From the NCBI GenBank assembly GCA_964416505.1, contig CAYQEJ010000003.1, forward strand, positions 54,034 to 118,033: a stretch of 64,000 nt of DNA. The letters are read 5' to 3'. The translations under genes and the position numbers were made by a program. Below, piece after piece: positions 2,974-46,749 of the stretch. A model generated the notes under the pieces. It had not been told where the DNA came from. It was given only the letters and a program-made list of their open reading frames with translations, and did no database searches. Source of the stretch: an uncultured Gammaproteobacteria bacterium. GTDB taxonomy: Bacteria; Patescibacteriota; Microgenomatia; Levybacterales; UBA12049. Positions within the stretch are counted from its first letter, which is position 1; each line of letters starts with the position of its first letter.

Positions 2974-7378
<4,405 letters not shown>

Positions 7379-28055: not shown

Positions 28056-29999
28056 TTACTTATTTTGGTCAAAATCAGAGAAGCCAGGTGCAATTTGCGG
28101 CGTCTGCGGAGGAACAAAACCTGATTGATTCATGGGACTAATGGGCGCTGGGTTTTGGTAGGGTGCTGAAAAAGAAGTCTCATTCATTATTCTTTGCTCC
28201 TCCTGTCTTCTTAAAAGTTCTTCTGGATTTGAAGTAATAATCTTGTGTTCAAACGGAGCAGATATCACTTTCATGGAAACATGACTTTGTCCTGCAAAAA
28301 ATAAACCCTCTCCGACGTTTGCTGATAAAAGTAGTTGTTTTTCCTGCTGTGTTAAATAGAAAATTTGAGACACTAAATCTATCTCAGTAGGGCTTTGTTT
28401 TAAAAGCATCTGAATGGACGAGTTTGAAAGAATTGCCTTTCCATAATCGGTGGAGAGAAAGTCCTGAACATCCTGGGTAGCTGTTGTTAGTGCAAGATAA
28501 TATTTCCTAGCTCTTTTAGCTATTCCATGGATGAAAGAGGCAGAGTCTTGGTATTTCATAAGGTACCAGGCCTCATCAAGCACTAATAGTCTTTTTTTAA
28601 GATCTTTTCTAACTCTCGTCCAAATGAAATCAAGAATTATATGCATAGCCACGGGGCGAAGCTGATCTTCGAGTCCTCTAGTTGAAAATGCAGTGAATGG
28701 ATTTTTTATATCAAAGTTTGATTGTTGGTTAAAAATTCCAGCCATGCTTCCTTTTATAAATTTCTCAAGCCTTAGTGCTAGGTTTTTAGAAATTTCATCC
28801 TCGTTTCCCAAGAGAACTTTATATAGATCTTCCATGAGAGGAGGCTTCTTTGTTTGTGTAGATGGGTCTGGTGTAATTCCTTTTTGCCTGTAAACTTCTA
28901 CTAATGCTCGATCAAGAATTGCGTCATGCGCTGCATCAAGTTCTCCCATAACGATTCTAAGAAGAGCATGGAGCGAAAGGATTTTTAATCCTAATTCATT
29001 TTCTCCTTGTTCATAGATACCAGATAAGTCGAATGGATTAATCTTGATAGGAGAGGCGGGGGTGAACTCAATATATTCTCCGCCGAGGGTTCTCGTGAGT
29101 TCCCCATATTCTCCTTCAGGATCAATTACTATGATTTCAGCGCCAAACATAAACTGTCGCATAAGCTCCAGCTTGATAAGGTAAGATTTTCCTGCTCCAG
29201 ATTTTCCGAAAACCACTTCGTTTGCATTTTCTAGAGAGTATCTGTCAAAAATGATTAATGAATCATTTAGCTTATTTAGTCCATACATTACTCCTTTATC
29301 TTGGGTGAGAGTGGCAGATGTAAACGGAAACGTTGAAGCGAGGGAAGTGGTGTCCATGTTTCTGGTCAAGAATAATTGATCGTCTGCAATTGGAATGCTT
29401 GATTTAAAACCAGCATCCATTTGAAGGGTTGCGGGTTTAGCTAGGACAAGAATTGAAGCCAGAAGTGTTTTGAGTCTTTTTGATGCCTCTTCAAGGTCCT
29501 CTTTTGTATCAGATATTAATGTAATGTAAAGGCTAAATTGAAAAAATCTTTCTATTCCCTTTGCGAGTTCTTCCTGTACCGAAAGTGCGTCTTCTAGAGA
29601 AGCTTGGACGGTAGGATCTAAGACTTTATTATTCTGTGTTTGTTCCATAAGGGTTGCTTCCATTTCGCCAATTTTTCTTCTTAGATCTTGGAGGGCATCT
29701 GGTGAAGATGTGGGATAGCAGAACATAGAAAGATTTAGTGAATGTTCAAAATCAATAAGAGGTTCAAGCCAATTAGGTGAAACAAATCTGGGGTATCCCA
29801 CAACGAAAAAAGTTTTGTGATATTTTTCTCCAATTCTAATATGCCCAAAATCAACTTCGATAGAAGAAGGGGCTATGATATCCGTAACAGAATTCATGCC
29901 TCTTTCGATTCTTTTTATTCCCTCATTTGCAGGGTGAATCGCTGCGCCAGGAATAGGATTAGTTTTTAAGCTTTGATCTTTTTTGTTAAATAGTTTCAT
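28056..29999 (-). CDS. VirB4/TrbE/CagE-family type IV secretion ATPase
   Basis: 647 aa, no N-terminal TM. N-terminal CagE_TrbE_VirB-type region (IAPSSIEVDFGHIRIGEKYHKTFFVVGYPRFVSPNWLEPL). Walker A VFGKSGAGKSYL, Walker B LLVLDEAWYLM, and C-terminal LTTATQDVQDF, typical of VirB4. Confidence 0.75.
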   Translation of the reverse strand: MKLFNKKDQSLKTNPIPGAAIHPANEGIKRIERGMNSVTDIIAPSSIEVDFGHIRIGEKYHKTFFVVGYPRFVSPNWLEPLIDFEHSLNLSMFCYPTSSPDALQDLRRKIGEMEATLMEQTQNNKVLDPTVQASLEDALSVQEELAKGIERFFQFSLYITLISDTKEDLEEASKRLKTLLASILVLAKPATLQMDAGFKSSIPIADDQLFLTRNMDTTSLASTFPFTSATLTQDKGVMYGLNKLNDSLIIFDRYSLENANEVVFGKSGAGKSYLIKLELMRQFMFGAEIIVIDPEGEYGELTRTLGGEYIEFTPASPIKINPFDLSGIYEQGENELGLKILSLHALLRIVMGELDAAHDAILDRALVEVYRQKGITPDPSTQTKKPPLMEDLYKVLLGNEDEISKNLALRLEKFIKGSMAGIFNQQSNFDIKNPFTAFSTRGLEDQLRPVAMHIILDFIWTRVRKDLKKRLLVLDEAWYLMKYQDSASFIHGIAKRARKYYLALTTATQDVQDFLSTDYGKAILSNSSIQMLLKQSPTEIDLVSQIFYLTQQEKQLLLSANVGEGLFFAGQSHVSMKVISAPFEHKIITSNPEELLRRQEEQRIMNETSFSAPYQNPAPISPMNQSGFVPPQTPQIAPGFSDFDQNK

Positions 30000-30643
30000 A
30001 TTTTCATTTTTCCAGTAACCATGGGAGTTATGATATCTTTGGATACTCCCGAGCTGCTTTCGTTGTTATAGATCTCATAAAAAAGCCTAATTAGTTCGTC
30101 TTTTTCCAAAATTTTTGATTTCAAACCGGATCTTAAAAGCTCTTGGATTATAGATGAAGATTTGGAAGTTAATAAATTTTTTGCATCTCTTATTATCGCA
30201 TCTCTGTCTCTTGAGTTTGCAATTCCTCCAGCTCCTTTTTCAAGATACGAGTACGAAATGGAGATATAAAATTTTTTATCAAGAACTGTATTTTTTTGAA
30301 CAAGTTGAGAAACGAATTCTTTATACATTCTAATGTGTTCTGAGAATGTTGGGTTAGATGCTTTCGCAGCTTGTTCCTCGAGTAGTTTTTGATAATTACT
30401 GATATCGAGTTTTCTGCTCAAAATTACTATTTGAATAGGAAAAGATAGGGAGTTGATGAGCGAAGCATAAGAGAGAATTTTTATTTCTTGTTCTTCTTTG
30501 GATTGTAATGCAAAATTTGTCGCTGTAACTTCTATAACCATACACACACTTCCTCCGGACATAAGAACTAGGCTGTCTATAATGTCCTCAATCTCTATAA
30601 ACTTTTGTGTTGTCGCTATGGTTTTTGGGGCAGAGTTTTTCAT
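29996..30643 (-). CDS. Hypothetical cytoplasmic protein (215 aa) translationally coupled between the VirB3-like and VirB4-like genes
   Basis: No TM or signal. Overlaps the VirB4-like start by 4 nt and abuts the upstream gene. No recognisable family. Confidence 0.45.
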   Translation of the reverse strand: MKNSAPKTIATTQKFIEIEDIIDSLVLMSGGSVCMVIEVTATNFALQSKEEQEIKILSYASLINSLSFPIQIVILSRKLDISNYQKLLEEQAAKASNPTFSEHIRMYKEFVSQLVQKNTVLDKKFYISISYSYLEKGAGGIANSRDRDAIIRDAKNLLTSKSSSIIQELLRSGLKSKILEKDELIRLFYEIYNNESSSGVSKDIITPMVTGKMKI

Positions 30644-31942
30644 TTAATTAAATAATTCCCTTCTTAATTCTTCCCTGGGATCTACTGAAAAAATTTCAAG
30701 CGGCATAATTGGTGTTCCGTTCGCTTCAATTTCCACGGTGTCAAACTTATTTTGTCCTTTTGGATCTTCAATAGAAACTATGTATTTCCCGTTTTGAAGA
30801 GAAGTTGCCGATGCAAATTGCCCAAGCCCATTTGTTTTAAAAGCTCTCACTGGATTGTCTTCTGGATCTTTTACCTCGACTAGAATATTTGGTAGGGGAT
30901 TCCCTCTAGGATCTTTAATGATCCCAGTTATTAGATTTGGATCTGCGGGAGCTGTGGGGAGGCCAACGCTTTTTACTAATGCAGGAGGGGCTTTTCTAAC
31001 TCTTTGGGTCTGGGGAAGAGGTTGTGCCGTAATTGGATTAAATTTCGTTTTTTCTGTTCCTTCAAGTCTAGCCTTAAGAGATAATAATTCTTTCTCAAGC
31101 GCCTCCTTTTGTCTGTTTGCTTCGATAAGCATTTTCTCAAGTTCTTCTGATTTTTGATGAGTAGTTGAGTCTGTTTGAGGAGTTGAGTTATTTTCTATAG
31201 CTTTTGCTTCAACAAGCTCTTTCTGAAGTGCGGAAACTTGTTCTTCGAGTTTTCTTTCATTTTCTTCTATTTTTTCTTCCTCCTCTTTTTCTTTGATTTT
31301 TTCAAGATCATCAAGATTCCCAGACATAATAGGTTTATTGTTGGGATCATTTAATTCGATTACTCTGCCTGGGACCTGAGTTATAGGAGTGTTTATTTGT
31401 GGTGCGCTCTGTGGCTGCGGAGCAGGAACAGGTTGAATGATTTGGGCTTGTGTTTGGATCGGGGTTTGTTGGATAGGTTGTTGATAGTTGATGGGGGTTG
31501 GTGTTTGTATCTGTGTTTGTGTTTGTAAAGGCATATTGGTAGGTGGTAGTGGAGCAGGTGTGTTAAGTTGAGGAGGAGTTGATTGGAGTACAGGATTTAA
31601 TGGTGTTTGTGGGGCACTAGGATTCATTTGTGAGAGATTTCCACCAGTTTTTCTATAGATATATTGGGTAGGGGAGAAAAGAGCTCTAATGAAATTTCCA
31701 ATCATGGTATCCATAGGTCTTCCGTCAATAGGAACAAACGCTAATGCAACACCAAGAGAGAGAAATAATACTGCTAAGGGGAGTCTAATCAGTATAAATA
31801 TCGGTAAGATAAAAAATATAAACCAGGCAATTACTGTTCCACCGGCAAGGTAGGCAAACTGCTTTACGGTCATGTTGCCAATAAGTTTAAATTGAAATCC
31901 TGTAATGTCTTGTGGTATTGGATGGTTTTCCATAGGCAGCAA
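30644..31942 (-). CDS. PrgI/VirB3-like two-TM N-domain, followed by a P/Q/T-rich linker, a coiled coil and a C-terminal beta-sandwich (carboxypeptidase-regulatory-like) domain
   Basis: The N-terminal 100 aa are MLPMENHPIPQDITGFQFKLIGNMTVKQFAYLAGGTVIAWFIFFILPIFILIRLPLAVLFLSLGVALAFVPIDGRPMDT, a hydrophobic hairpin as in PrgI/VirB3-family proteins that precede VirB4. The C-terminus IKDPRGNPLPNILVEVKDPEDNPVRAFKTNGLGQFASATSLQNGKYIVSIE is Big/CarbopepD_reg-like. Confidence 0.45.
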   Translation of the reverse strand: MLPMENHPIPQDITGFQFKLIGNMTVKQFAYLAGGTVIAWFIFFILPIFILIRLPLAVLFLSLGVALAFVPIDGRPMDTMIGNFIRALFSPTQYIYRKTGGNLSQMNPSAPQTPLNPVLQSTPPQLNTPAPLPPTNMPLQTQTQIQTPTPINYQQPIQQTPIQTQAQIIQPVPAPQPQSAPQINTPITQVPGRVIELNDPNNKPIMSGNLDDLEKIKEKEEEEKIEENERKLEEQVSALQKELVEAKAIENNSTPQTDSTTHQKSEELEKMLIEANRQKEALEKELLSLKARLEGTEKTKFNPITAQPLPQTQRVRKAPPALVKSVGLPTAPADPNLITGIIKDPRGNPLPNILVEVKDPEDNPVRAFKTNGLGQFASATSLQNGKYIVSIEDPKGQNKFDTVEIEANGTPIMPLEIFSVDPREELRRELFN

Positions 31943-32070: not shown

Positions 32071-32700
32071 TTAATTTTGACAAGTGTAGATTATATCTCC
32101 CGCATGATTAAGCTTTTTGCATGTTCTGTTAAGAGCACAGTATCCATGAGGATGCGCTTCGCTGCAAGGAAATTGGCATGTGTAGTGACTACCTGTATCG
32201 TTTGGCACGCAGATTCTACCCGTAGGGCATATTCCGTCCGGATGTTGATTGTTGCATCTATAAGCGACGCTATCGGGAACACATTGATCAAATCCAAATG
32301 TTGAAATGCAGGCGTTTACTCCAGTTAGTCTTATTATGAAAGGTAATATTATTACTGATAATAAAATTAAGGTTAATCCCAAAATAGAAAAAGTAAGTGT
32401 TTTTTTGGCCCCATCTGCTTTTTTTGCATCACCTCCAGAGCTAACAAATTTAAATCCGGAAATTATAATCATGGCTACTGCGACAATTCCTGCGAAAATA
32501 AACACCCAGTAAATTACGTTTCCTAGGATAATTGGTAGGCAGTTAAGCGTTGCTACCTGGTTCGATCCGCCAGTTAGACATCCAGATCCTCCAAGAGGGG
32601 TAAAATTTGCAGCAAAAACATTTGGGGTGAAAAAAAGAAATCCAGAAATTAACAAAAAGAAAAATAAAAACTTTTTCACTGATAAATAAAAGCGTAACAA
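32071..32700 (-). CDS. VirB2/TrbC-like pilin paralog 1 with a Cys-rich C-terminal extension
   Basis: Signal peptide, hydrophobic helix, loop SGFKFVSSGGDAKKADGAKK, second hydrophobic helix, then a 75-aa tail containing 11 Cys. Confidence 0.5.
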   Translation of the reverse strand: MLRFYLSVKKFLFFFLLISGFLFFTPNVFAANFTPLGGSGCLTGGSNQVATLNCLPIILGNVIYWVFIFAGIVAVAMIIISGFKFVSSGGDAKKADGAKKTLTFSILGLTLILLSVIILPFIIRLTGVNACISTFGFDQCVPDSVAYRCNNQHPDGICPTGRICVPNDTGSHYTCQFPCSEAHPHGYCALNRTCKKLNHAGDIIYTCQN

Positions 32701-32721
32701 AGAAGATGTTAAATTACAAGA

Positions 32722-33141
32722 TTAACGAGGAGCTACTAGTGTAGGGAGAGTGAAGCTGCTGTTAAGTAGGCTTCCGATTCCGAAGAATTGTAATGCGAGG
32801 TTGATGATGAAGTAGGAAAGAAATACTAGTACTAATCCTACCAGTGCAGCTACGATCATTCCTCTTGCAGCATCTACTTTTCCTTTATCTCCACCTGATG
32901 TAATCCATTTAATTCCACCATATACTAGAAAACCTAAAGCTAGCAATACAGCCACTATAAATAATAGAAGAATTATTGAAGAAACTAGTGGGCCAATTCC
33001 TGCGTTACCCATATTGCAAAGAGTTGTAAATCTTCCGCCTACGCAGAGATCAAGTGTACCGCCACCTACAGCAGCAAAAGTTTTAGGGGTAAACGTTAAG
33101 AAAGAAGCGATCGATAACGATAGAGCAGTTAATTTTTTCAT
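32722..33141 (-). CDS. VirB2/TrbC-like pilin paralog 2
   Basis: Signal peptide ...TFA|AVGGG, TM1, loop WITSGGDKGKVDAARGMIVAA, and TM2. This is the classic conjugative-pilin topology. Confidence 0.55.
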   Translation of the reverse strand: MKKLTALSLSIASFLTFTPKTFAAVGGGTLDLCVGGRFTTLCNMGNAGIGPLVSSIILLLFIVAVLLALGFLVYGGIKWITSGGDKGKVDAARGMIVAALVGLVLVFLSYFIINLALQFFGIGSLLNSSFTLPTLVAPR

Positions 33142-33195
33142 TACTTATTTGATCGTATTGTGTTTTTAATTGTTTGTCAAGTACCTTTTCTGAAT

Positions 33196-33513
33196 CTAGA
33201 CTATTTGTCCAATTCCTAAAAACCAACCTAAAACATTTATTATCAAAAAAGAGGAAAGAGCAACTAGAAGTCCTATAACTGCATATGTAATTTTTTTTCT
33301 TGCAGCGTCTACTTTTCCTTTATCTCCACCTGATGTAATCCACTCAATGCCTCCCCAGACAAGAAAAGCGAGTGAGGCGAGTGTTATTAATACAAAAGCC
33401 CAGGTAAGACCATTTGTAATTACGTTTTTAAGAGTATTGAGGCCGCCTGTGGGCATCCCTGCGACAGGTTCTATAGAATATGAGCCGGGTAAGTTAAATG
33501 CAATTTTTTCCAT
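33196..33513 (-). CDS. VirB2/TrbC-like pilin paralog 3
   Basis: Shares the near-identical loop WITSGGDKGKVDAARKKITYAVIG with paralog 2, and has two flanking hydrophobic helices. Confidence 0.55.
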   Translation of the reverse strand: MEKIAFNLPGSYSIEPVAGMPTGGLNTLKNVITNGLTWAFVLITLASLAFLVWGGIEWITSGGDKGKVDAARKKITYAVIGLLVALSSFLIINVLGWFLGIGQIV

Positions 33514-34517
33514 TATCTCCCAAATCCTGGTAATCCTAGAATATCACGAGTTATTAATTCAAGTATAACTAAAGAAAATATAATAAATATAAATCCTACT
33601 ATTGCTGCCGTAAGCTGTTCTCTGGCATTTTTTACCTTATCAGGATCACCTTGGGATGTCATAAGTTTGTATCCGGCGACCAAGATTATTATGAATATTA
33701 TTCCGCCTCCAATACTTAAAACAAATCCAAGTGCCCATCTGGTAAAGTCAGTTGCTCCAGTGCTAACCATTCCAAATGCTGTTCTGACTCTTAAACATCC
33801 GCGCGCGTCATTATAGAAATTTCCATTTTTTTCGCAAGGTAAAGATAGAGGAGCATTCTTGGCATAATTTATGACTGAAGGATCATACAGGCTTCCGGCT
33901 ACGCATGTGCCTGTTCTACAGTCTCCTGTGGTAAGCGAATTGCAATAAAAACCCTCAGAGCACGTTCCCCTTACTCTCCCTCCTTTAGAACAGATTTTAT
34001 AATCGTTTGATGTTGGATCTATTTCGCAAGAATTATTTTGTCCTGGGCCCGTGGGTTCAGGGGAAGGATTTTGACCACCAGCCGTCCTAACTACTATGCC
34101 ATTGCTTCTGCAGGATGGTTGACAAGTGCCGTCTTCTTTGTAAACGCAGAGTCTAACCGTATATGTGCCAGCGCCTAAATTTCTTAGATCTCCTAGGGTA
34201 TGATCAGTCTCGCTAAATGTAACACCTGAATCTGGGTTTATAAGAATATCTTCAGATACGCATCCTTCTTGAAATTTTCCAGCTTTTGTTAATGAATCAA
34301 GAGGGCATGGGCCAGTATTTGAAGTATTAAATGCTACATAAAGACGTGTTCCTGCATCGCGGATATTGGTGAACGTAATGCTTTTAAATTTTCCTACTTG
34401 AAGTTGAGTGGGATCAGTCGTAAAAGTACAAGCATCATCTGGCCCGGCATATGCAATGGTAGTTTTTAGAGCGAAAAAAGCAATGAAAATTAACAAGGGA
34501 AAAATTATTTTCCTCAT
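33513..34517 (-). CDS. Secreted Cys-rich domain protein with a C-terminal VirB2/TrbC-like pilin module (paralog 4)
   Basis: Signal peptide, then an approximately 230-aa Cys-rich extracellular domain, then a pilin-like TM1-loop-TM2 with a degenerate MTSQGDPDKVKNAREQLTAAIVGF loop. Stop and start overlap with paralog 3. Confidence 0.5.
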   Translation of the reverse strand: MRKIIFPLLIFIAFFALKTTIAYAGPDDACTFTTDPTQLQVGKFKSITFTNIRDAGTRLYVAFNTSNTGPCPLDSLTKAGKFQEGCVSEDILINPDSGVTFSETDHTLGDLRNLGAGTYTVRLCVYKEDGTCQPSCRSNGIVVRTAGGQNPSPEPTGPGQNNSCEIDPTSNDYKICSKGGRVRGTCSEGFYCNSLTTGDCRTGTCVAGSLYDPSVINYAKNAPLSLPCEKNGNFYNDARGCLRVRTAFGMVSTGATDFTRWALGFVLSIGGGIIFIIILVAGYKLMTSQGDPDKVKNAREQLTAAIVGFIFIIFSLVILELITRDILGLPGFGR

Positions 34518-34552: not shown

Positions 34553-35875
34553 CTATGGAGTGAATTTGAATCCGCGGCCTTTAACTGTTTGGATATGTGT
34601 TGGGGAAGAAATGTCTTTTTCAATTTTCTTTCTTAGTCTAAAAATAAGTTGATCTAAAGCTTGCTCTGTAACCCCGGCAGTAGAGGATAAATCGCCCCAA
34701 ACTGAGGATATGATTTCGTCTCTTTCAACTATTTTTTCAGGATTTAAAATAAAAAATTTAAGTAATTTAAACTCTGAAGAAGTAAGTCCTTCAGACAAAA
34801 CTATTTCGCCAATTCTAATTTCCTTAGCCGCTTCATCAAATATTATCTTTTCTTGTTTTTCGGAAATTTCTTTTTTAGCAAATTCTTCCAAGAGAGGAAC
34901 TGCAAATTTATTATTTTTAATAAGTCCTACAGCCACTAAATGAGATGATTCAGAAGCTTTTTTATTTGCGATTAGACTTTGTTCGTATGGAGAGAGAGAA
35001 TTCCAGATTTCGTAAAGAACTGATTTTACTTTAGAATTATTTTCTAAAAATTCTCTGACATCATCTTTTTTATCATTTAAGATACAGGCTTCAATGCTAA
35101 CAAGCCATAATTTACCTAATTCTCCTGTTAATTCACTAATCTTTTCAAGCGTTTTTTTATCCACATTTTTTCCACTATTTTTCTTTAGATAATCAAGTCT
35201 AAATTGTTGAATTTTTTCATCTCCTAGAGATAGGTAAACTAAATTTCCTGTTAAAAATTCATAAAAGGAAGTAATTATTTCATTTCCTGCGGTTTCTTCT
35301 AATGGCCGAGAAAGAGGAAATATGCAGGAAAAACGATATTTTGCTCTATCTCTCAATACTCTTAAGTTATCAAAGAAGATAGGCTCAAGTACTCCAACGT
35401 ATTCTTCGAATCTATCAAAAAGTAGAACTATAGTTAATTCTTTTTCAAGACATAAATAGTCAATCGTTTTTTTTAGACCCTGGAAGATCACAAGTTCATC
35501 GCCTGATTTTAGACTCTCATCAAATATTTTTTTAAGAGCTTTATGCTCTTCGTTCATTTTTCTCTCCGCTAGAGAATCCAAGATTTCCAAAAACATATAC
35601 TTTGTAGATTCGGAAAGTGGCCTTTTTTTAATTTCTGCAAAATTCATCATTACGAAATGAAACCACTTTGTGTTTTCTTTAAGGTGAAGTTCGCGAGCTT
35701 TTGAATTGTATGCGAGAATTCTTAAGATGTTTGATCTTCCAACTCCTGGAAGAGAAATTACCTGAGCAGAATTTCCAACTCTTACAAAAGAAAGAATTTT
35801 CTCTATCTCAGAATATCTTGCGTCTTCAGGGTAAAGTGATTCGAAGTGTTTTGGTTCCATAGCTAGGTAAAACAA
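34553..35875 (-). CDS. Transcriptional regulator: N-terminal STAND/AAA-like ATPase domain, C-terminal OmpR/PhoB-type winged helix (Trans_reg_C)
   Basis: P-loop-like VISLPGVGRSNILRIL. The C-terminus ERDEIISSVWGDLSSTAGVTEQALDQLIFRLRKKIEKD....IQTVKGRGFKF matches the Trans_reg_C/CadC wHTH consensus. The domain order is the reverse of SARP/AfsR regulators. Confidence 0.55.
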   Translation of the reverse strand: MFYLAMEPKHFESLYPEDARYSEIEKILSFVRVGNSAQVISLPGVGRSNILRILAYNSKARELHLKENTKWFHFVMMNFAEIKKRPLSESTKYMFLEILDSLAERKMNEEHKALKKIFDESLKSGDELVIFQGLKKTIDYLCLEKELTIVLLFDRFEEYVGVLEPIFFDNLRVLRDRAKYRFSCIFPLSRPLEETAGNEIITSFYEFLTGNLVYLSLGDEKIQQFRLDYLKKNSGKNVDKKTLEKISELTGELGKLWLVSIEACILNDKKDDVREFLENNSKVKSVLYEIWNSLSPYEQSLIANKKASESSHLVAVGLIKNNKFAVPLLEEFAKKEISEKQEKIIFDEAAKEIRIGEIVLSEGLTSSEFKLLKFFILNPEKIVERDEIISSVWGDLSSTAGVTEQALDQLIFRLRKKIEKDISSPTHIQTVKGRGFKFTP

Positions 35876-35939: not shown

Positions 35940-38900
35940 ATGACACACGAAATAATTATGAGACCAGGTGAATTGACAGTGCAAAGGGGACAATCTACAC
36001 TGAATAAGGAGCAAAGTATTTTTATGCCAGACGCAGGAATACAAACAGAAGGAGTTCAGCCAGTAAAACCAGCTATTAGAGCTGAGGTTTTACCTTTACC
36101 TAGAGTAACAACCAGCTTGTCTTTGGAAGGACTAACCCCGACTCAGCGTGCTGACGCTTTAAGGACAACAAGGCTTCTCGAAGGGCTCGGTTTGAAGCCT
36201 GACCAAGTTACTTCCAAAGGAAGAACAGAGCAAAAAGCAGGTCAAGTTGTTGAGAATGCACAGCTTGATAGTGAAAATCCGGAAGCATCAACTAAATCGC
36301 AGGAAATTTTAGGAAAAGGAGAATTAACAGATCAGGATAGAGCTGATCTTTTTGGATTAAACGCTGGTAGAATCGCAAAAGCAGAAGAGCTACTTAAAGA
36401 TAGTCTCGGAAGAGAATTAACTGATAAAGAAAAAGAAGGAATCTTACGCGCTCATTTTGTGGGAGCAGGGGAAAAAGGAAAAAACGGAGAAGAATCCGGA
36501 GTGTTTAATGTAACACGAGAGCAGCTTTCGGAAAAAGCAAAAATATTAAAAGATGCTGGATTTGATCAGGAGCAAAGAAGGGAAATCATAGAATCAGGTC
36601 TTACTCAAATGAATCCACCACAGCCTCTTACTCCTCTGGAGGCTAGAAACCAGGCAATTCTGGCCTTAGGGAATTTAACATTAACTGGAAAGCTTTTGGA
36701 AATCAGAGATAACATTTTAAGACTTCATAATGCTGCAATTGGAAATCCAGCTGCAGGTATTCCCGTGATTAATCCAGATGGTATTACCTCTGACGCACTA
36801 ACAGCGCTTCATAGAGAATTTTATAATAAATTTAATAAAGTACTTAATAATCCAAATACACCACCGCCACCCGAAGTTCTTCTTTTTGAAAGAAGACTTA
36901 AAGAAATTGGTGATCTTGATGCAAGAACACACGAGCAGCGTGGTCCACAAGAAGATTTCCATAATGAATATGATTTCATTAGGCTGCAATTGAATAGTAC
37001 TCCTCAATTATTGCCCAATGGAGCTCCAAATCCCCAGAGGGCAATTTTGGAAGAAGAGTTAGTTTTGAGTGTAGAAAATTTTGTGGGACATGGCATAAAC
37101 CCATCCAGTGATAGTATTTATGACTCTACTCTTAAAAAAATAGTGCAAACTGATACTTTGGTAAGTGATCCTGATCTTCAGGCAAGAATTCAGTCATCTG
37201 TTCAGAGGTTGGTTATTAGAATTGTGGGAATGCCACTTCAGGACGATGTGGGAGATTTTGATATTGGGTTTTATGGTGGAATTAATTTTTCAGCAATTAA
37301 AAATTTACTTTATTCACAGTCATTGGATCCTGCATATTTTAGATCTCAGCAAGAATACAATGCCTTTAGCAACTTGAGAAGAGACCAGAACTTAAGCGTA
37401 GAAGGTCTGTACCATTCTATGAGAATAGTTCATGAAATCAATAAAATGATTGTTCAGAATCAGCTTGATGCAGCAAATCAATCGGCTCCAAACTTAGGTC
37501 CTGAAGCACTGCAAATGCTTGCCAAGACAAAAGGTGCTGGCGCGATATTTAGAATTATGGAATCTGGTCTTTTGGAACTATTGGCAAAAGATGGATACAT
37601 GGCAAAGGGTTCGTATGATGCTCTGATGGGCAAGGCAATGAGTCAACAAACTGGAAGATATGATAATTCTCAAACGTCATCGATAGCTTCACAAGTTAAA
37701 GAAATGATTAGCGCTTTAAGATCATTGCCTCCTGGTATTATTCAGGCAGGAGATTTACAGGAGTTAAGAGACATGGAAAATTGGGAAATTGATTTAGCAT
37801 TTAATCTTGGAAGAAATATGTATAACGTTTTACATAGGTCTGCGGAGCTGGCTTCATGGGGAAGGCTTCCGAAAGGACTCAAGCTTTACACAAATTCTGT
37901 TTTTGGAGGATTTAGAAATATTTATAATCCTGCCCTTCATGTTATAGAAAGGTTTAAGCCCGGCGAAGGTAGAGGAGGATACAGATTATTCCAGATGTTT
38001 ATGGATGCGATGCAAAGACGAAGAGAAAGAGAGGGATTTGGTCATATGGGGCTTAAAAAACTTCATGGAGATTTAATTAAGTATTTTGAACTGCCTTCGA
38101 TTGCAGGTATGAGAGGGTATGTCTCATCTTGGAAAGCGAACGAAGGAGTTCTTAAAGTAATCGAAACCGGTTACGCTCCAAGAGGTAGATTTGCAGATCT
38201 AGATATATTTTCGCAAGTACAACTTAGAGAAGCAGGTTCTCAGATTTTTGATAGAAATGGAGGGGTAATTACTGGAAAAGGAATTGGATATTTCCTGGAT
38301 GTAGATGCTCTTACTTTTAAAGATGGTCAAGGGAGAACATATTCATGGAAAGATTTTTCAGATGCTGAGCAAGCTGATTATTATAGATCAATTTTCTTTG
38401 AGCCAAATACAGGTGGACATGGTCATGATCCAGTGTTAAAAAGAGATATAAACATAGGATTGGGAACTCTTTATAAAACAGCACTTGGGCCAGCAGGGGG
38501 ACATGAAGCACATAAAAATCATCATCATTTAAATGAGGTTAAAGAAGAAATAAGGCGTCTTATCTGGGAAAGAGTAGGAGCGGATAATCCCCTTGCAGTT
38601 TTACCGTATCTACATAGGCTTGAATTTAGTGGTGATCATAAACCAGTTGATGTGGGCCATCACGGGACGCCGCACTTAGTAGATGTTGCAGGCACAAAAT
38701 TGCTTGAAGATATTTATGATAGGCCTGGTTGGCAAGATTTTCAAGTGAAGCTTATGCTTCTAAATGAATGGAGAATGTCAAAAATTAAACAAGGAAATAC
38801 TAATTACACATTGCAGGACGCAATAAATGAAATGGATACAGCAATGGGTGTTCAAAGAGATCCTGTGACCCATGCAATTATTCAGGGGGGAAATCAAAGC

Positions 38901-39653
38901 CTAAATCTTAGTGGGGATGAATATGCATGGTATCAGGAGATAGCAAGAGGTGCGAAATTAGCTTCAGCAGATATGGCAAATGTAAGATTTGGATTTGTGG
39001 CTTTCGCAAACGATCTCCCACTGGAGCAATTTAACTTTGAGGTTTTAGGTGACAACTCTTATCAGAGGCATTTTGGCGATATTGTACAGATTAACAGTTC
39101 AACGGGGGCTATGATAGAGGCATTCGATAATTTGGGAACAGTAAAAGATTATCATGGAATAGTTGAGATTGTGGCAAAATTTGAAAAAGGTATAACGGCT
39201 GTGCATGGAGATGGTGCAGCTAAGGATAAAGCTGCTCCGTTGGTTGAGGCAATTACAAGATTTTTCAGGAGAGGAGAAAATGGCGGCTCAAAGAGTCATA
39301 AGGATGAAAATGAAAAATCTTTTTCTGAAAAAGCTAAGCGTTATTTTAGGCAATGGGATGAAGTTCATGGTCTACTTCAGCAATTTCATAAGGCTAATTC
39401 TATCGCACAGCAATTTTACAACGTTGAGGCATTAGCTCTTGATAGGCATCAATTGTATATGCTTCAGGAAGAGCTTATGGCAAATGGTCTCATGGGGCAT
39501 GATCAAGAAGAAGAGTTCAGGGAAAGATTCGGAGGATTCTTAGGATTTATTAATAGAATGTTTATTGAGCAATTTAGTAGGCTTTTGAAAGTTACATCTC
39601 TAATCACTACGAGAAACTTACTGGGTAGTTCATTTAAGGGTATAGGTCAATAA
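35940..39653 (+). CDS. Giant hypothetical protein (1237 aa), no signal peptide or TM, no recognisable catalytic motif; candidate cargo or effector of the adjacent T4SS-like apparatus
   Basis: Single uninterrupted ORF. GC visibly higher than neighbouring genes. No HUH relaxase motif, no Walker motifs. Divergent from the regulator gene and convergent with the VirB6-like gene (stops 4 bp apart). Confidence 0.55.
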   Translation: MTHEIIMRPGELTVQRGQSTLNKEQSIFMPDAGIQTEGVQPVKPAIRAEVLPLPRVTTSLSLEGLTPTQRADALRTTRLLEGLGLKPDQVTSKGRTEQKAGQVVENAQLDSENPEASTKSQEILGKGELTDQDRADLFGLNAGRIAKAEELLKDSLGRELTDKEKEGILRAHFVGAGEKGKNGEESGVFNVTREQLSEKAKILKDAGFDQEQRREIIESGLTQMNPPQPLTPLEARNQAILALGNLTLTGKLLEIRDNILRLHNAAIGNPAAGIPVINPDGITSDALTALHREFYNKFNKVLNNPNTPPPPEVLLFERRLKEIGDLDARTHEQRGPQEDFHNEYDFIRLQLNSTPQLLPNGAPNPQRAILEEELVLSVENFVGHGINPSSDSIYDSTLKKIVQTDTLVSDPDLQARIQSSVQRLVIRIVGMPLQDDVGDFDIGFYGGINFSAIKNLLYSQSLDPAYFRSQQEYNAFSNLRRDQNLSVEGLYHSMRIVHEINKMIVQNQLDAANQSAPNLGPEALQMLAKTKGAGAIFRIMESGLLELLAKDGYMAKGSYDALMGKAMSQQTGRYDNSQTSSIASQVKEMISALRSLPPGIIQAGDLQELRDMENWEIDLAFNLGRNMYNVLHRSAELASWGRLPKGLKLYTNSVFGGFRNIYNPALHVIERFKPGEGRGGYRLFQMFMDAMQRRREREGFGHMGLKKLHGDLIKYFELPSIAGMRGYVSSWKANEGVLKVIETGYAPRGRFADLDIFSQVQLREAGSQIFDRNGGVITGKGIGYFLDVDALTFKDGQGRTYSWKDFSDAEQADYYRSIFFEPNTGGHGHDPVLKRDINIGLGTLYKTALGPAGGHEAHKNHHHLNEVKEEIRRLIWERVGADNPLAVLPYLHRLEFSGDHKPVDVGHHGTPHLVDVAGTKLLEDIYDRPGWQDFQVKLMLLNEWRMSKIKQGNTNYTLQDAINEMDTAMGVQRDPVTHAIIQGGNQSLNLSGDEYAWYQEIARGAKLASADMANVRFGFVAFANDLPLEQFNFEVLGDNSYQRHFGDIVQINSSTGAMIEAFDNLGTVKDYHGIVEIVAKFEKGITAVHGDGAAKDKAAPLVEAITRFFRRGENGGSKSHKDENEKSFSEKAKRYFRQWDEVHGLLQQFHKANSIAQQFYNVEALALDRHQLYMLQEELMANGLMGHDQEEEFRERFGGFLGFINRMFIEQFSRLLKVTSLITTRNLLGSSFKGIGQ

Positions 39654-39657: not shown

Positions 39658-41262
39658 TTATCCTCCCAATCCCAATAGTGAGGAAATAGCTCTGCCTCTC
39701 TTTCTGTTTGCTGGATTAGGATCCATTGGATCATGGACAATAGTTGAATAAGTCTTTAAGCCTCCTCTAATAGATTTGCCTGCTTCTCCGGCCGGTTCAA
39801 ATACTGGGCCAAAATTAATAGCTGGAGCTTTAATTGCGCCTCTAGTTATGCTTAAAACATGAGGAGTCATAAATAAAAACCCAAGAGCTACTACACCTGA
39901 AAATATCTGACTTGATGTTCCCGTACCACCGCCTACTAGTGGTGGGATAAAAAGTGAACCAGAAGTGACTACATCTTGACTTGTAGCTGCGATATTGCTG
40001 AAAACTTTTCCAAGTACAAGCATGGACATAGCGGTAGGGAATACTGCGAGATTTGCTAGCATATCTTTAAACCATGCGCCTATTCCAGCACTTGACCCCG
40101 GTAGTAATCCGAGAAGAAGCCAGAAGGGGGCAAAAACTATATCGAGAAGTATGTTTATGTATGCAGTTATAAGAATGATCCAAAGCCTTATGGCTGTATA
40201 AATCAAAGCTAGGAAAATTATTAATGCTGATACTATTCCAACTATAAGGCCTACAACAGCAGTAAATAAATTACCGATTATATCTGCAAATCCTGGCTCA
40301 AGATTTATCTGGCCTTTTCCTGTAGGTCCATTTAATGCTGAAGTTACAAGATTTCTTATAGTATCGGACCCTTGTGCGGCTAGTTCCGGGAAGCCTCCTT
40401 TCACACCTGTATAAATTTCCCCTGATCCTCCAGGCCAAAGCCTATTTATAGCATCAAAAGGAGTAGGAGAAGTAGAGACTTGACCAAAATTTGTAATTTC
40501 GTGCCCAGGAATACTGGACAATACTCCTCCTACGAGATAAAGAGCAACATACATAACATCAATTAGAAGACCAGCTATGGCAAACGAAAAGGTAACAAGG
40601 ACAATTCCTAAAACAATTTTAGGGATCTGATTTTCTATAGTCATAATAGTGCGGGGATCTATGTGTACTCGAAACATTATTGCTAAACCGATTAACACAA
40701 AGACCAATACGAATAATAGATATGCGATATTTCTCATAGCTACCCATACTTGAAGAAGGGGTCTAATGCCACAAAAACCAACTCCTTCTGGTTTGTTTGC
40801 ACAGTCGCTTACTACAAGCGCTTGTGCGTACGTTTTTTGCGTGACCCCAAAATTCCCTGCCATATATTTAATATAATCACCGCTTGAAGCGGGAGGAGTA
40901 AACGTTGAAGCTATCATTTGAACCAAGATTCCGTAAGCACCCCCGCCATTTTCCACGAAACCTATTTTTCCAGTCTGAGGATTAAGCCCTAAGCATCTGT
41001 GGTCAGGTCTAATTGGATCTATTCCTCCGAGTTGACATACTGCAGCTGCCATGATTTCCATGAAAGTTGATTGAACATATGTTCTTTGGTCATTGGGCAC
41101 ATCTGAATCAAAATTTGATGAGTAATCATAGGAGGAATTGGGAGCACTGTATTTTTCGCTTGTGATTTCAGACGGAGTTTGAGCAAATCCATTTTTAGTA
41201 AATATGAAAATAAATGAGGCTAAAAAGACAACGAAAAACAAAACTCGGGCAGAGATTTTCAT
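39658..41262 (-). CDS. VirB6/TrbL-like polytopic inner-membrane protein
   Basis: 534 aa with signal peptide MKISARVLFFVVFLASFIFIFTKNGFA, an approximately 140-aa external domain with 3 Cys, and at least 6 TM helices with Gly/Ala-rich loops. Size and topology match TrbL/VirB6. Family assignment by architecture only. Confidence 0.45.
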   Translation of the reverse strand: MKISARVLFFVVFLASFIFIFTKNGFAQTPSEITSEKYSAPNSSYDYSSNFDSDVPNDQRTYVQSTFMEIMAAAVCQLGGIDPIRPDHRCLGLNPQTGKIGFVENGGGAYGILVQMIASTFTPPASSGDYIKYMAGNFGVTQKTYAQALVVSDCANKPEGVGFCGIRPLLQVWVAMRNIAYLLFVLVFVLIGLAIMFRVHIDPRTIMTIENQIPKIVLGIVLVTFSFAIAGLLIDVMYVALYLVGGVLSSIPGHEITNFGQVSTSPTPFDAINRLWPGGSGEIYTGVKGGFPELAAQGSDTIRNLVTSALNGPTGKGQINLEPGFADIIGNLFTAVVGLIVGIVSALIIFLALIYTAIRLWIILITAYINILLDIVFAPFWLLLGLLPGSSAGIGAWFKDMLANLAVFPTAMSMLVLGKVFSNIAATSQDVVTSGSLFIPPLVGGGTGTSSQIFSGVVALGFLFMTPHVLSITRGAIKAPAINFGPVFEPAGEAGKSIRGGLKTYSTIVHDPMDPNPANRKRGRAISSLLGLGG

Positions 41263-41337: not shown

Positions 41338-41424
41338 GGAGAGGTCGCATAGTGGACTAGTGCGGCTGTCTTGAAAACAGCTGTGGGTGCAAGCCTACCG
41401 CGAGTTCGAATCTCGCCCTCTCCG
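41338..41424 (+). tRNA. tRNA-Ser (anticodon TGA), class II with a long variable arm
   Basis: GGAGAGG acceptor pairs with CCTCTCC. Anticodon stem-loop GCTGT-cTTGAAaa-ACAGC. 22-nt variable arm, T-arm GAGTTCGAATCTC. 87 nt; CCA not encoded. Confidence 0.85.
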
Positions 41425-41425
41425 C

Positions 41426-43864
41426 TTATCTCTGTCTAGGGTTTGAGTTTATCCCCCCGCTCACTTGACCCGTAGTGCTTCGTATAGAATTTACTAAAAA
41501 TGAAAGTCCAATTGCGCTTAGGAAGTTTGTTAATCCTTCTTTTCTTTTTTTTCTTTTGATGATTTCATGCTCTATTCTATATGCTTCATAAGCCATTTGC
41601 GCTAAGGTAATCTCCTCAGCGTTCCCTTTAGTCACTGTTTCTTCTAGTCTTTTTTTTGCTGCTTTTAATGCTTCATTTGCGTCTGATTCCATTTCTTCAA
41701 GCTCAGTAGAAAATTCTCTATTTCTTGCTTTTGCTCGAATCTCTGCGCTTTCAAAGGCTTTTTTGTATGCCTCATCGCGCTTTTTAATTGCGTTTGCTAA
41801 TTCTTCATCGGTCATTTTTCTTGGTTTACCATCTCTTTGGGCAGCTTGTTCCAGGAAAATTTCCATATTTAATCTTAATAAAGCTTCTTTTACTTCAGCT
41901 TCTGCTAATCTCCTTTCCAATATCTTTCTGTCCTCAACGCTTAAGGCTCCTTTCATTTCAGCAATTCTTAGTTCTTCCCGTGCTTCATCTACGAGCGTAA
42001 ATACTTTTCTTTCGGGTGCCGCTTGATTATGTTCATCATCGGTATCTGGGAGTTGTTCATCTGTTTCTAATATTTCTTCAGCTTCATCTCTAGGATCAAT
42101 TATTTGATCCACTGGTTGAGATGATGGCTCCATGGCTGTCTCGGTGGCTCCTTCAAGACCTTGTGCAGCTGAAATCATATCGCTAAGTCCCTGATTTGCT
42201 TCAGATGCTTTTATGAATTTTACATTTGGGAATGCCTCTTGAAGTCTTGGAATGGCATCATAATAAGCCTCGTGTACGATTACTCCAGCTATTCCGCCAT
42301 CTTTTAAAGATTGGCCTGGTTTTCCTAGTACAATAAAGCTTCCGTTATCTTTAACGCTTATTGCTGCAGCATTTGGTTTTGAATCAAGATTGGCTGTAAA
42401 GAAACTGGCTTCTTGATCTATGCCATTTGTTAGAAGGTTATTAAGACTTACTAAATCCTGCGTGGTTCCCTTTGCAATCCCATGTGCATCAAATTGAGAA
42501 GCGAGTTCAGGAGGGATTGATCTTCTGGTATCAACTAGCATATAAGGGTCATATGGGAATTCTTCGCCATCAACTAATTCATTTGGATGTTCTTCGATGA
42601 ATCTCTGTGCTTTTCCTGCCATTGCTTGAACTTCATCGGAAGACAATCCAGTTCGATTCGCTTCTGCTGTAGTGGGTGCTGGAACAGATTCTGGCGCTGT
42701 AGCTGAAGTTGCATCTCTTTTTGCTTTTCTTGCGATTGCTTCAGAGAGGCCATGATGTCCTTTTTCGGCATATGCTTTGGATTTTTCAGGATACCGCGCT
42801 AGATATGCATCCCATCCATTCATTTCTTCAATATCTCGTGCAGCTTGAGCTTTCTCTCTCCTACTTGAAGGATCAGCGCTTTGAACTTCAGGGTGTGCAT
42901 TTGCTTTTTCTATAATTTGTGCTTGAAACCTGGTAAGTTCTGGATCTAAATCTGGGTGGTCATAGATATGATCTGGTCCGATGGTTTCCAATCTTGGTGG
43001 ACCAGCGGTAAATCCTTCGGGGAGATTTACGTTTCCTGCTGATTGTGGGGATGTCTCTGGCAAATTTGATGGGTTTATCATTTCCCCGAGACCTTCTGTC
43101 ATTTGATCTGCTCTAATAAATTTTACTCCTGGGTATGCTTCTTGAAGCCTTGGAATAGCATCGTAAAAAGCTTCATTTACTAAAACTGCTGCTATTTCAC
43201 CTCTGGGGTTTTCTGGCGTTTCAATCTTGCCGTCGGGTTTACTAAGGATGATAAAATTTCCCGTATCATATGCTAGGCCACCCATTGCAGATGCAACTTG
43301 AGCTTCAATTTCTGGTGGAACTTTTAATGGTACAGTATGGAAATCACGAGCCTGGTCAATACCGGTAGTTAAAAAAGTATTTAAAGCCGCAAGTTGGTCT
43401 TTGTATCCTCCCTTTGCAATTCCATGCGCATCAAATCTTTGACCTATCTCAACAGGAAGTTGACCTCTCACTCCTACCATGAGATCATCTTGTTCATATT
43501 TAATTTCCTGAATAAATCCAGTTGATTCTGGTATTGGATGATCTCTTATGAAAACAGCAGCATTAGTTCCTAATTCTTGTATTTCTTGGGGGGAAAGGCC
43601 AGTTCTTGTTACTTCCTGACTTGTTAAGCCTGCTGCGTCAGCTAAGCCTGCGTCTATTCTTGGCGGATTTGCTGTTAGATCTGCTTCAATCGCTCCCGCC
43701 AATGCTGTGTTAGCTGCAACCTGCGCAGCATCTGGTGCTTTGGGTGCAGTGGGAGCAGCAGGTGCCCTTACTGCTTCTGCTGGCCGTGGTGCTCCATCTG
43801 GCATTCCTGGTGTTGTAGTCATACGTTCTATCATAAGTCTAGATTTATAAGCTAAGTTTGTCAA
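41426..43864 (-). CDS. Large hypothetical protein (812 aa) with an internal tandem duplication of an approximately 330-aa module, a C-terminal coiled coil and a C-terminal TM anchor
   Basis: Repeated blocks: QFDAHGIAKGGYKDQLAALNTFLTTGIDQ / QFDAHGIAKGTTQDLVSLNNLLTNGIDQ, and FYDAIPRLQEAYPGVKFIRADQMTEGLGEMI / YYDAIPRLQEAFPNVKFIKASEANQGLSDMI. GC-richer than surrounding genes. The stop is 2 nt from the tRNA-Ser 3' end. Confidence 0.55.
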   Translation of the reverse strand: MTNLAYKSRLMIERMTTTPGMPDGAPRPAEAVRAPAAPTAPKAPDAAQVAANTALAGAIEADLTANPPRIDAGLADAAGLTSQEVTRTGLSPQEIQELGTNAAVFIRDHPIPESTGFIQEIKYEQDDLMVGVRGQLPVEIGQRFDAHGIAKGGYKDQLAALNTFLTTGIDQARDFHTVPLKVPPEIEAQVASAMGGLAYDTGNFIILSKPDGKIETPENPRGEIAAVLVNEAFYDAIPRLQEAYPGVKFIRADQMTEGLGEMINPSNLPETSPQSAGNVNLPEGFTAGPPRLETIGPDHIYDHPDLDPELTRFQAQIIEKANAHPEVQSADPSSRREKAQAARDIEEMNGWDAYLARYPEKSKAYAEKGHHGLSEAIARKAKRDATSATAPESVPAPTTAEANRTGLSSDEVQAMAGKAQRFIEEHPNELVDGEEFPYDPYMLVDTRRSIPPELASQFDAHGIAKGTTQDLVSLNNLLTNGIDQEASFFTANLDSKPNAAAISVKDNGSFIVLGKPGQSLKDGGIAGVIVHEAYYDAIPRLQEAFPNVKFIKASEANQGLSDMISAAQGLEGATETAMEPSSQPVDQIIDPRDEAEEILETDEQLPDTDDEHNQAAPERKVFTLVDEAREELRIAEMKGALSVEDRKILERRLAEAEVKEALLRLNMEIFLEQAAQRDGKPRKMTDEELANAIKKRDEAYKKAFESAEIRAKARNREFSTELEEMESDANEALKAAKKRLEETVTKGNAEEITLAQMAYEAYRIEHEIIKRKKRKEGLTNFLSAIGLSFLVNSIRSTTGQVSGGINSNPRQR

Positions 43865-44912: not shown

Positions 44913-45002
44913 TGGCGGAGAGTGGGAGATTCGAACTCCCGGTCGCCTTACGACGACATCCGCTTTCCAAGCGAACGCACTAGGCCACTATGCGAACTCT
45001 CC
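44913..45002 (-). tRNA. tRNA-Ser (anticodon GGA), CCA encoded
   Basis: The reverse complement GGAGAGTTCGCATAGTGGCCTAGTGCG-TTCGC-tTGGAaa-GCGGA-long variable arm-CCGGGAGTTCGAATCTCCC-ACTCTCC-G-CCA folds as a class II tRNA. Confidence 0.85.
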
Positions 45003-45431: not shown

Positions 45432-45474
45432 AATATTAAGTGTTTACACAGAAAACTTCCTAGAAATTATTTTG

Positions 45475-45559
45475 CGGAGGGTACAGGATTCGAACCTGTG
45501 TAGGACTTGCGCCCTCGAGTTTTCGAAACTCGTGCAATTGGCCACTATGCGAACCCTCC
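45475..45559 (-). tRNA. tRNA-Ser (anticodon CGA)
   Basis: The reverse complement GGAGGGT...CGAGT-tTCGAaa-ACTCG...GGTTCGAATCC...ACCCTCC-G has a long variable arm. 85 nt. Confidence 0.8.
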
Positions 45560-45564
45560 TTATG

Positions 45565-45638
45565 CACCCTCGAATGGATTCGAACCATCGACCTTAGCGT
45601 CCGCAACGCTACGCTCTATCCAGCTGAGCTACGAGGGC
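45565..45638 (-). tRNA. tRNA-Arg, anticodon read as GCG (G34 instead of the usual A34/I34)
   Basis: The reverse complement GCCCTCG-TA-GCTCAGCTGGATAGAGC-G-TAGCG-tTGCGGa-CGCTA-AGGTC-GATGGTTCGAATCCATT-CGAGGGT-G. The D-arm GTAGCTCAGCTGGATAGAG is characteristic of tRNA-Arg. Acceptor has G1-U72. Confidence 0.65.
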
Positions 45639-45692
45639 TTGCTCTCTTAGGGCATATGCGTATTTTAGTTCATTATATGAGGCCAATCAAGC

Positions 45693-46670: not shown

Positions 46671-46749
46671 GGCTATAGTTTAGGTATAGTATTATACGGA
46701 AGCTATGTCAATATGAGTAAATATATCGAAAACACTCAATATTCTGGGG

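Follow-up and report, generated by a model that had tools for sequence, protein, structure and literature searches.

The 64,000-nucleotide stretch of contig CAYQEJ010000003.1 that we analysed (hereafter, the window) carries, between positions 32071 and 34517, four adjacent open reading frames (ORFs) on the minus strand, which we named P4, P3, P2, and P1 in the order of their transcription. They are very probably an array of VirB2-like pilin genes belonging to a type IV secretion system (T4SS) of Patescibacteria. Indeed, all four products exceed the gathering cut-off of the Pfam family PF18895, T4SS_pilin, set at 26.6 bits (scores in Table 1), so that an ORF or chance artefact is rejected; the four consecutive pilin-like genes announced by an earlier note on this DNA are well there. 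The coordinates of the array, of its subregions, and of the neighboring genes are gathered in Table 1, together with some features of other loci; the related loci of the array (L001 and following) were fetched via the homologues of P4 or via VirB4.

Table 1. Features of the pilin array and of its surroundings; coordinates are those of the window unless a related locus is named.
Feature	Coordinates	Strand	Details
P4, head-bearing T4SS_pilin	33513-34517	-	334 amino acids (aa); PF18895 41.4 bits, residues 258-321
P4 head subdomain 1, predicted Ig/FN3-like beta-sandwich, aa 30-145	34083-34430	-	AF2 strands, pLDDT about 70-88
P4 conserved C-module, aa 226-334	33516-33842	-	LPC...GC juxtamembrane loop, beta-hairpin, TM1, SQGD loop, TM2
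P3, short leaderless T4SS_pilin	33196-33513	-	105 aa, 0 Cys; PF18895 36.6 bits
P3 loop, gene-conversion partner	33298-33342	-	WITSGGDKGKVDAAR; 44/45 nt identical to the P2 loop
P2, signal-peptide T4SS_pilin, 2-Cys loop ahead of TM1	32722-33141	-	139 aa; PF18895 28.9 bits
P2 loop, gene-conversion partner	32863-32907	-	WITSGGDKGKVDAAR; 44/45 nt identical to the P3 loop
P1, T4SS_pilin with C-terminal Cys/His-rich tail	32071-32700	-	209 aa; PF18895 26.9 bits
P1 tail, aa 127-209	32074-32322	-	10 Cys; two 4-Cys units C-x8-C-x5-C-x10/12-C
Upstream regulator, C-terminal OmpR/PhoB-type winged helix (Trans_reg_C)	34553-35875	-	440 aa; PF00486 70.5 bits
PrgI/VirB3-like protein	30644-31942	-	432 aa; PF12666 43.1 bits (cut-off 27); PF13620 30.8 bits, below cut-off
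VirB4 N-terminal part, separate ORF	29996-30643	-	215 aa; NF045975 positions 98-281, E 1e-10
VirB4 ATPase, monoderm CD1110 type	28056-29999	-	647 aa; NF045971 388.9 bits (cut-off 325); PF19044 99.9 bits
dnaN	22913-24028
dnaA	21251-22765
L002, AbiE-like pair and bAvd/23S_rRNA_IVP genes (listed jointly)	9842-10743, 5565-5948, 16262-16633, 17784-18146
Multi-module protein, L023	1777-3435
Multi-module protein, L022	10001-15328

Each protein of the array holds a single PF18895 hairpin, which consists of a transmembrane (TM) helix; a loop of the form S-x-G-D...K...A-R/K; and a second TM helix. Hydropathy profiles gave, for all four, two strongly hydrophobic 19-mers (peaks 2.1-3.2) with about 20 residues and a short charged loop between them, and in the alignment of the four modules 11 residues are invariant, including the loop S-x-G-D-x-x-K-x-x-x-A. 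The AlphaFold2 (AF2) models of P1 and P4 also give a helix-loop-helix. We found neither a non-hairpin fold nor a topology devoid of this helix-loop-helix, and the pilin-like nature of the four proteins survives. The common topology proposed earlier also included a signal peptide, and this part stands for three of the paralogues only: P1, P2, and P4 start with a hydrophobic, signal-like segment, while hydropathy detects no N-terminal hydrophobic segment in P3. The ATG of P3 overlaps the stop codon of P4 and its ORF cannot extend upstream. Its orthologues are likewise leaderless; they have in common a non-hydrophobic N-terminus, M-EKLAFNLPG...GMPSGG, and some of them end with a tail of 4-6 Cys. 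Moreover, a Cys pair located immediately ahead of TM1 is conserved in the P1, P2 (Cys33 and Cys42), and P4 types. The mutual identity of the four paralogues of the window is only 24-49%.

P4 is the head-bearing member of the array. Its 14 Cys all lie within residues 30-241, ahead of the pilin module, which agrees with the Cys-rich N-terminal domain previously noticed. The AF2 model, based on a 61-sequence alignment (mean predicted local distance difference test score, pLDDT, of 72.5), runs from a signal helix through a beta-sandwich (residues 30-145), a Pro-rich linker, a low-confidence Cys-rich stretch (165-220), and a confident juxtamembrane beta-hairpin to two helices (255-287 and 292-326, pLDDT about 85-93) joined by a 4-residue loop. 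When the sandwich was compared to the PDB with Foldseek, weak and consistent matches to LILRB1, KIR, and FN3 domains were obtained (E 4e-3 to 5e-2, prob 0.9-0.99). According to the model, the head is made of an immunoglobulin (Ig)-like beta-sandwich plus a Cys-rich region, an assignment of fold class alone. The pilin module that follows had been called degenerate, and this is wrong: none of the other three modules reaches its PF18895 score, and no other part of P4 is as well conserved among relatives. In P4-type modules, C241 is invariant and C228 nearly invariant among homologues.

At the other end of the array, the probable start of P1 is a GTG at 32679 and not the TTG at 32700, and it yields the MKKFLFF N-terminus of the homologue P0095. 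P1 has 12 Cys, two of them (C41 and C54) ahead of TM1 and 10 in the 83-aa tail that follows TM2; the Cys-rich C-terminal module described earlier is present, with 10 Cys instead of the 11 then counted. The AF2 model (pLDDT 69) shows a small hairpin closed by C41/C54; two helices (52-87 and 92-126) connected, here too, by a 4-residue loop; and a tail of small beta-hairpins. Both 4-Cys units of the tail carry a conserved H-P-x-G-x-C motif. The tail is conserved in relatives, the 4-Cys unit also forms the tail of the P3 orthologue in L002, and, among the 1404 ORFs of the fetched loci, the motif is confined to pilin tails. Neither a Pfam scan nor a PDB sequence search identified a relative of the P1 tail, and a homologue search with the tail alone returned no candidate with enough 5-mers in common, a result that carries no information on its occurrence elsewhere.

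P2, whose orthologues at the same array position have module identities of 57-82%, is a candidate for the bulk subunit. Its loop had been reported as nearly identical to that of P3. In fact, WITSGGDKGKVDAAR is fully identical in both proteins, and 44 of the 45 nucleotides (15 codons) are the same, while in the flanks (55 codons) the same codon is used at only 6 of 19 conserved residues. The probability of finding at least 14 of 15 identical codons, computed with the codon usage of the window itself, is about 1e-4. Elsewhere, the P3 orthologues carry TSQGDKNKVEAAR or TSTGDKTKIEAAR and the P2 orthologues carry SGGDKGKVEAAR; where the P2 and P3 of the window both read VDAAR, the orthologues in L001, L002, and L009 read VEAAR or VEASR. 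Because these orthologue loops read otherwise, the P3 loop of the window is P2-like and the derived Asp is common to both. The suggested gene conversion in the loop is thus supported, and the P2 and P3 loops are homogenised by conversion of a short tract. Inside other genomes, the loops of P2 and P3 also co-vary (KTKIE/KTKVE, KSGIE/KSGVE, and AKAVD/SKKVD, with 28-35 of 45 nucleotides identical), which may reflect either repeated conversion or co-selection. Beside these two genes, a promoter-like TTGACA-17-TACGAT lies at 33152-33180 (minus strand), in the 54-nucleotide gap just upstream of P2, and would fit a separate, higher expression of P2; as a whole, the scan for promoters and terminators gave a background level only.

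The array is located 2.1-4.5 kb upstream of VirB4 and about 8 kb from dnaN/dnaA, in a locus where the order is regulator, pilins, PrgI/VirB3, N-terminal part of VirB4, VirB4, and then dnaN/dnaA. VirB4 exceeds the NF045971 cut-off and has PrgI/VirB3 next to it, as in the monoderm T4SSs of the MPF-FATA/CD1110 type (MPF for mating-pair formation), and the T4SS is of this monoderm (MPF-FATA/CD1110-like) ancestry. The PrgI/VirB3-like gene is syntenic and of conserved architecture in L001 and L002; the OmpR-type regulator is syntenic in L001, L002, and L003; and the orthologues of the VirB4 N-terminal part match the TraC-like family PF26593. Past VirB4 come four proteins with no significant match in Pfam or NCBIfam, three of which have a single N-terminal hydrophobic segment and one, of 755 aa, three internal ones. 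No relaxase or type IV coupling protein (T4CP) was found in Pfam scans of 37 of the larger ORFs of the window, which include the flanks of the T4SS cluster and leave a few ORFs of at least 150 aa outside the scan. The remaining part of the window encodes housekeeping functions (sigma-70, DnaG, PurA/B, RuvB, a class I aminoacyl-tRNA synthetase, YidC, two class A penicillin-binding proteins, and PGK), with a GC content of 30-42%. As for the host, the homologues of P4 and VirB4, as well as the VirB4 loci, come from metagenome-assembled genomes named Candidatus Levybacteria or Levyibacteriota and, more distantly, from Shapirobacteria and Woykebacteria, all pointing to a patescibacterium. From these names and from the gene context, we conclude that the locus is the T4SS of a Levybacteria-like patescibacterium (Microgenomatia), located on the chromosome close to oriC. 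Ten related loci of Levybacteria type (L005-L009, L011, L015, and L018-L020) were found in records titled 'uncultured Gammaproteobacteria bacterium', which looks like a mislabel at the level of the submission and makes these titles unfit for taxonomy.

To place the four paralogues among their relatives, the related loci were scanned with a hidden Markov model (HMM) of the pilin module, and eight genomes offered enough upstream sequence (L001, L002, L006, L008-L011, and L019). The array holds four to five genes in these relatives, and in all eight the order is the same: head-bearing pilin, short leaderless pilin, 2-Cys pilin with signal peptide, and Cys-tailed pilin. The best match of each window paralogue is the gene at the same position in 31 of 32 comparisons, with one tie (identities of 43-82%). 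Since same-position orthologues are closer than the paralogues of the window are to one another, the array duplications are old and the four types distinct; the recent duplication that the earlier note had read in this array is rejected. In the loci from more distant Microgenomatia (L012-L018 and L020), neither a narrow nor a broadened pilin HMM detected pilin genes within 10 kb of VirB4, hence the four-type array is shown for Levybacteria-like genomes only.

The variability is located in the heads. The eight relatives have one or two head-bearing pilins per array, of 266-472 aa and with 5-30 Cys, and, for 11 such pilins, the heads average 20% identity, versus 68% over the last 110 residues. 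In L001 (8540-9958 and 10001-10993; 472 and 330 aa) and in L006 (4190-5584 and 5553-6545; 464 and 330 aa), two head-bearing genes are adjacent. The heads of each tandem pair are only 18-19% identical, the last ~345 nucleotides are 99-100% identical, and the identity breaks at the start of the conserved juxtamembrane module. Judging from these alignments, the pattern appears to be one of domain exchange, or of conversion of the constant module beside different heads. The head evolves fast and is exchangeable on an almost invariant pilin module. Template and variable repeats of the diversity-generating retroelement type were looked for in the window as a source of this variability, and none was found. 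Two observations were made in L002 (coordinates in Table 1): a toxin-antitoxin pair of AbiE-like type splits its pilin array, and its T4SS locus contains three scattered genes of the bAvd/23S_rRNA_IVP family, no reverse transcriptase or template repeat being seen there or in the window.

The kind of system described here has been reported between 2023 and 2025, and nothing is new at the level of the system type. With PF18895, PF04956, and other profiles, Quinonero-Coronel et al. (2025; PMC12102498) screened 3,035 genomes of Patescibacteria and obtained VirB2-like pilins in 1,948 assemblies. They defined an array as at least two pilin genes in tandem or one gene apart, near virB4, and counted 441 arrays in 383 assemblies, each with 2-11 pilin genes, notably in Microgenomatia and Saccharimonadia; the identity within arrays averages 25% and reaches at most 54%, the T4SS genes are close to dnaA/dnaN, and Levybacteria genomes are part of the data set. 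In Southlakia epibionticum, transposon sequencing by Wang et al. (2023; PMC10633639) showed the T4SS, with its series of predicted pilins, to be essential for epibiotic growth. Finally, according to a review published in 2025 (PMC12857230), no other T4SSs of the Gram-positive type have VirB2-like pilins, the pilus itself not being shown. The four adjacent pilin genes near VirB4 in the window agree with the definition of an array and share many properties with the published ones, the SEML1_0006-0019 region of Southlakia included: PF18895 genes in tandem by virB3/virB4, a chromosomal position near dnaA/dnaN, no recognised relaxase or T4CP, a low mutual identity, and a Microgenomatia lineage. The arrays studied here also present features that the papers searched do not describe, namely fused globular domains, a fixed four-type architecture, an apparent exchange of heads on an identical 3' module, and gene conversion of the loop. 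Folded add-on domains on these pilins are not mentioned in PMC12102498, PMC10633639, or PMC12857230, nor in what a full-text search for PF18895 returned.

With the classical VirB2/TrbC/TraA pilins (PF04956; T-pilus 8exh and F-pilus), the proteins of the window share a two-helix hairpin with a short basic loop, VirB3/VirB4 neighbors, and, in three of the four paralogues, a signal peptide. Unlike them, they belong to a monoderm host, carry extra folded domains at the N- or C-terminus, include one leaderless paralogue, and have no recognised VirB5-like tip protein. Searches with module alignments and with structures gave no significant match to classical pilins; those with structures produced generic hairpin matches only, and PDB sequence searches, with whole proteins and with module alignments, returned nothing meaningful. 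The disulfide-rich heads had been judged uncommon for VirB2-type pilins, which is true with respect to classical VirB2/TraA and untrue within the PF18895 family. Indeed, the search for P4 homologues returned 94 proteins of 183-561 aa, nearly all annotated PF18895, with a query coverage mostly of 26-36% that maps to the C-terminal pilin module; since these homologues of varied length align mainly there, head-bearing PF18895 proteins are common in Levybacteria.

The window proteins also match NF045849, the 'Mbov_0395/MMCAP2_0565 family pilin-like conjugal transfer protein' of Mycoplasma integrative and conjugative elements (ICEs), an 80-aa hairpin (P4, E 3e-8; P3, 2e-5; P1, 4e-4; P2, 0.03). With 33.2 bits for P4 and 24.5, 20.1, and 13.8 bits for the others, versus a cut-off of 40, they are related to this family and are not members of it. 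The NF045849 model corresponds to a single module of 80 positions without heads, unlike the proteins of the window, and the Mbov_0395 tag differs by two from the tag of the Mbov_0397 VirB4 family, to which both the N-terminal part of VirB4 and the ATPase of the window also have matches. These sequence matches hint that the pilin-like hairpin was already part of monoderm systems of the MPF-FATA type and was not co-opted from diderm T4SSs. The link, even below threshold, bears on a question of PMC12102498, i.e., whether the monoderm T4SS brought its pilins along or recruited them from diderm systems. Among structures, the best functionally annotated neighbor of the P1 hairpin is the CedA1 pilus of Aeropyrum pernix (PDB 8dfu), one of the archaeal pilins for conjugation or DNA import, with a TM-score of 0.67 on the target and a non-significant E of 1.6, and without any sequence match. 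VirB5, type IV minor pilins, and the pIII versus pVIII proteins of filamentous phages provide a functional analogy only, that of a conserved assembly module with a variable exposed head; they are not homologous to the proteins of the window, in which the hairpin module that carries the head is the one of the presumed major subunit as well.

Searched exhaustively as a profile, the four modules of the window collected 64,505 cluster representatives at E<=1e-3, the best 150 of which are filled by multi-module polyproteins, i.e., single chains with 2-17 tandem T4SS_pilin hairpins. The examples that we looked at (P0104, P0110, P0122, and P0112; loci in Table 1) include a protein of 552 aa with 6 modules, which sits inside a pilin gene array, and a protein of 1775 aa with 17 modules, which is found on an archaeal-looking contig (ribosomal L39e, Cas4, and NosD) and matches both PF04956 and PF18895.

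How could such an array function? We favor, as a probable explanation, a pilin array giving rise to a filament with decorated subunits; for the filament mechanism itself, which is built by analogy with VirB2/TraA and with the essentiality observed in Southlakia, our confidence falls slightly short of even. Following the positive-inside rule, the net-positive loop of the hairpin would face the cytoplasm, in which case both termini would lie outside and the P4 head and P1 tail would be extracellular. The VirB4 machinery would extract the hairpins from the membrane and polymerise them, forming at the surface a filament or conduit that serves the contact with the host bacterium. Its bulk would consist of the small P2 and P3, with their gene-converted loop facing the lumen or cytoplasm, and P4 and P1 would be decorated subunits of lower copy, displaying for partner-cell recognition the Ig-like and Cys-rich head of the former and the double 4-Cys knot of the latter. 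A major pilin accompanied by minor or tip pilins, as proposed in the earlier note, is therefore a plausible reading; the underlying observation is real and mostly accurate, and its interpretation partly right.

Several points weigh against this filament. The major and minor roles are guesses, and polymerisation is put forward by analogy only, no filament having been seen for any Patescibacteria T4SS (pilus not shown, PMC12857230). A head of 230 aa may be sterically hard to fit on a VirB2-like lattice. Only one of the four modules matches PF04956, at E 0.008, and the others do not match it. Moreover, the PF18895 chains with 2-17 hairpins look like polytopic membrane proteins and not like extractable subunits. 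The main rival explanation builds on the same ground: the hairpins would stay in the membrane as two-helix anchors or as channel-lining parts of the translocon, P4 and P1 would be membrane-anchored, adhesin-like surface displays, and there would be no pilus. Monoderm T4SSs are normally without pili (PMC12102498, PMC12857230), the structure searches, as said, only found generic hairpins, large heads fit a cell surface more easily than a pilus lattice, and the surface adhesins of Gram-positive conjugation systems offer a parallel. On the other hand, all four proteins score as T4SS_pilin and have weak matches to TrbC and to the pilin-like family of Mycoplasma ICEs; a set of four to five distinct hairpin proteins, kept in a fixed order by VirB3/VirB4, suits a multi-subunit polymer better than redundant anchors; and the best functional structural neighbor is an archaeal conjugative pilin, the match being non-significant. 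We thus regard anchors without a pilus as a serious but rather unlikely alternative.

A second alternative, which we consider improbable, concerns the add-ons only: the Cys/His-rich tails of P1 and of some P3 orthologues would bind metal (as zinc or Fe-S-like Cys4/His knuckles) and would not be disulfide-knotted, adhesin-like heads. The His conserved in the H-P-x-G-x-C motif of each 4-Cys unit is compatible with it, and the sole PDB sequence match, over that very motif, is a high-potential iron-sulfur protein (HiPIP), with a non-significant E of 0.76, i.e., at chance level. However, the P1 tail is predicted to lie outside the cell, a place where disulfides are common, and its small beta-hairpins in the AF2 model have weak EGF/agouti-like neighbors in Foldseek. 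Finally, that the paralogues are interchangeable variants of one pilin, alternated to vary antigens or host range (a model proposed for the VirB2 arrays of Bartonella and Anaplasma), is suggested for Patescibacteria arrays by the authors of PMC12102498 and recalls the duplicated head-bearing pilins with different heads in L001 and L006 and the copy number of 4 to 5, but is very unlikely here, since four different architectures (head, leaderless, plain, and tailed), only 24-49% identical and with positional 1:1 orthologues in 8 genomes, indicate non-redundant roles and variation, like lineage-specific duplication, seems confined to the head-bearing class.

Coming back to the pilin array with decorated subunits, what we add to the known system, as far as the searched literature goes, is small: the head-bearing and tailed pilins, an identical module on which heads are apparently exchanged, the concerted loop, and the link to the Mycoplasma ICE pilin-like family. 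More speculatively, and with a confidence that we keep low, Levybacteria, as monoderms, could build a filament that depends on the T4SS; one VirB2-like subunit would carry an Ig-like/Cys-rich head, hypervariable and swappable on a constant module of 345 nucleotides, and a second subunit would end with a Cys4/His knot, the whole forming a modular device for host recognition. For the part in contact with the host, one would expect such a signature, a hypervariable head that is swapped on a constant module. If true, this device would set which bacteria the epibiont attaches to, and head-bearing VirB2-type pilins would represent a new structural variant of conjugative-type pili. This matters because Patescibacteria represent a considerable fraction of the diversity of bacteria and live fixed to other bacterial cells, the T4SS with its pilin series being essential in the one species tested. 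The locus offers testable handles for this purpose: four conserved pilin types, two with folded domains predicted to be exposed, and a hypervariable, exchanged head.

Several other features of the locus were observed. VirB4 is apparently split in two ORFs, of 215 aa and 647 aa, which overlap by 4 nucleotides; the NF045975 model matched by the shorter one is that of the VirB4 of Mycoplasma ICEs. The PrgI/VirB3-like protein begins with a PrgI membrane part, continues with a long stretch rich in Pro and Gln and with a charged one resembling a coiled coil, and ends in a CarboxypepD_reg-like beta-sandwich. The regulator is flanked by a gene for a 1237-aa protein without domain matches or Cys (35940-39653, plus strand) and by one for a polytopic membrane protein of 534 aa that has a signal peptide (39658-41262, minus strand); size-matched genes (one of 1207 aa and two of 531 aa) occupy the same place in L001, and these proteins may be further parts of the T4SS (VirB6-like?) or substrates of it. 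Further on, two inverted tRNA-Ser genes (41338-41425 and 44913-45002; 101-nucleotide arms, 76% complementary) bracket an ORF of 812 aa rich in Ala and Pro (41426-43864). This segment has the highest GC content of the window (0.42), and three more tRNA genes follow at 45474-46839. Lastly, in the ORF at 60439-61470, a CvpA (Colicin V production) membrane domain occurs together with a CAP/cysteine-rich secretory protein domain at the C-terminus.

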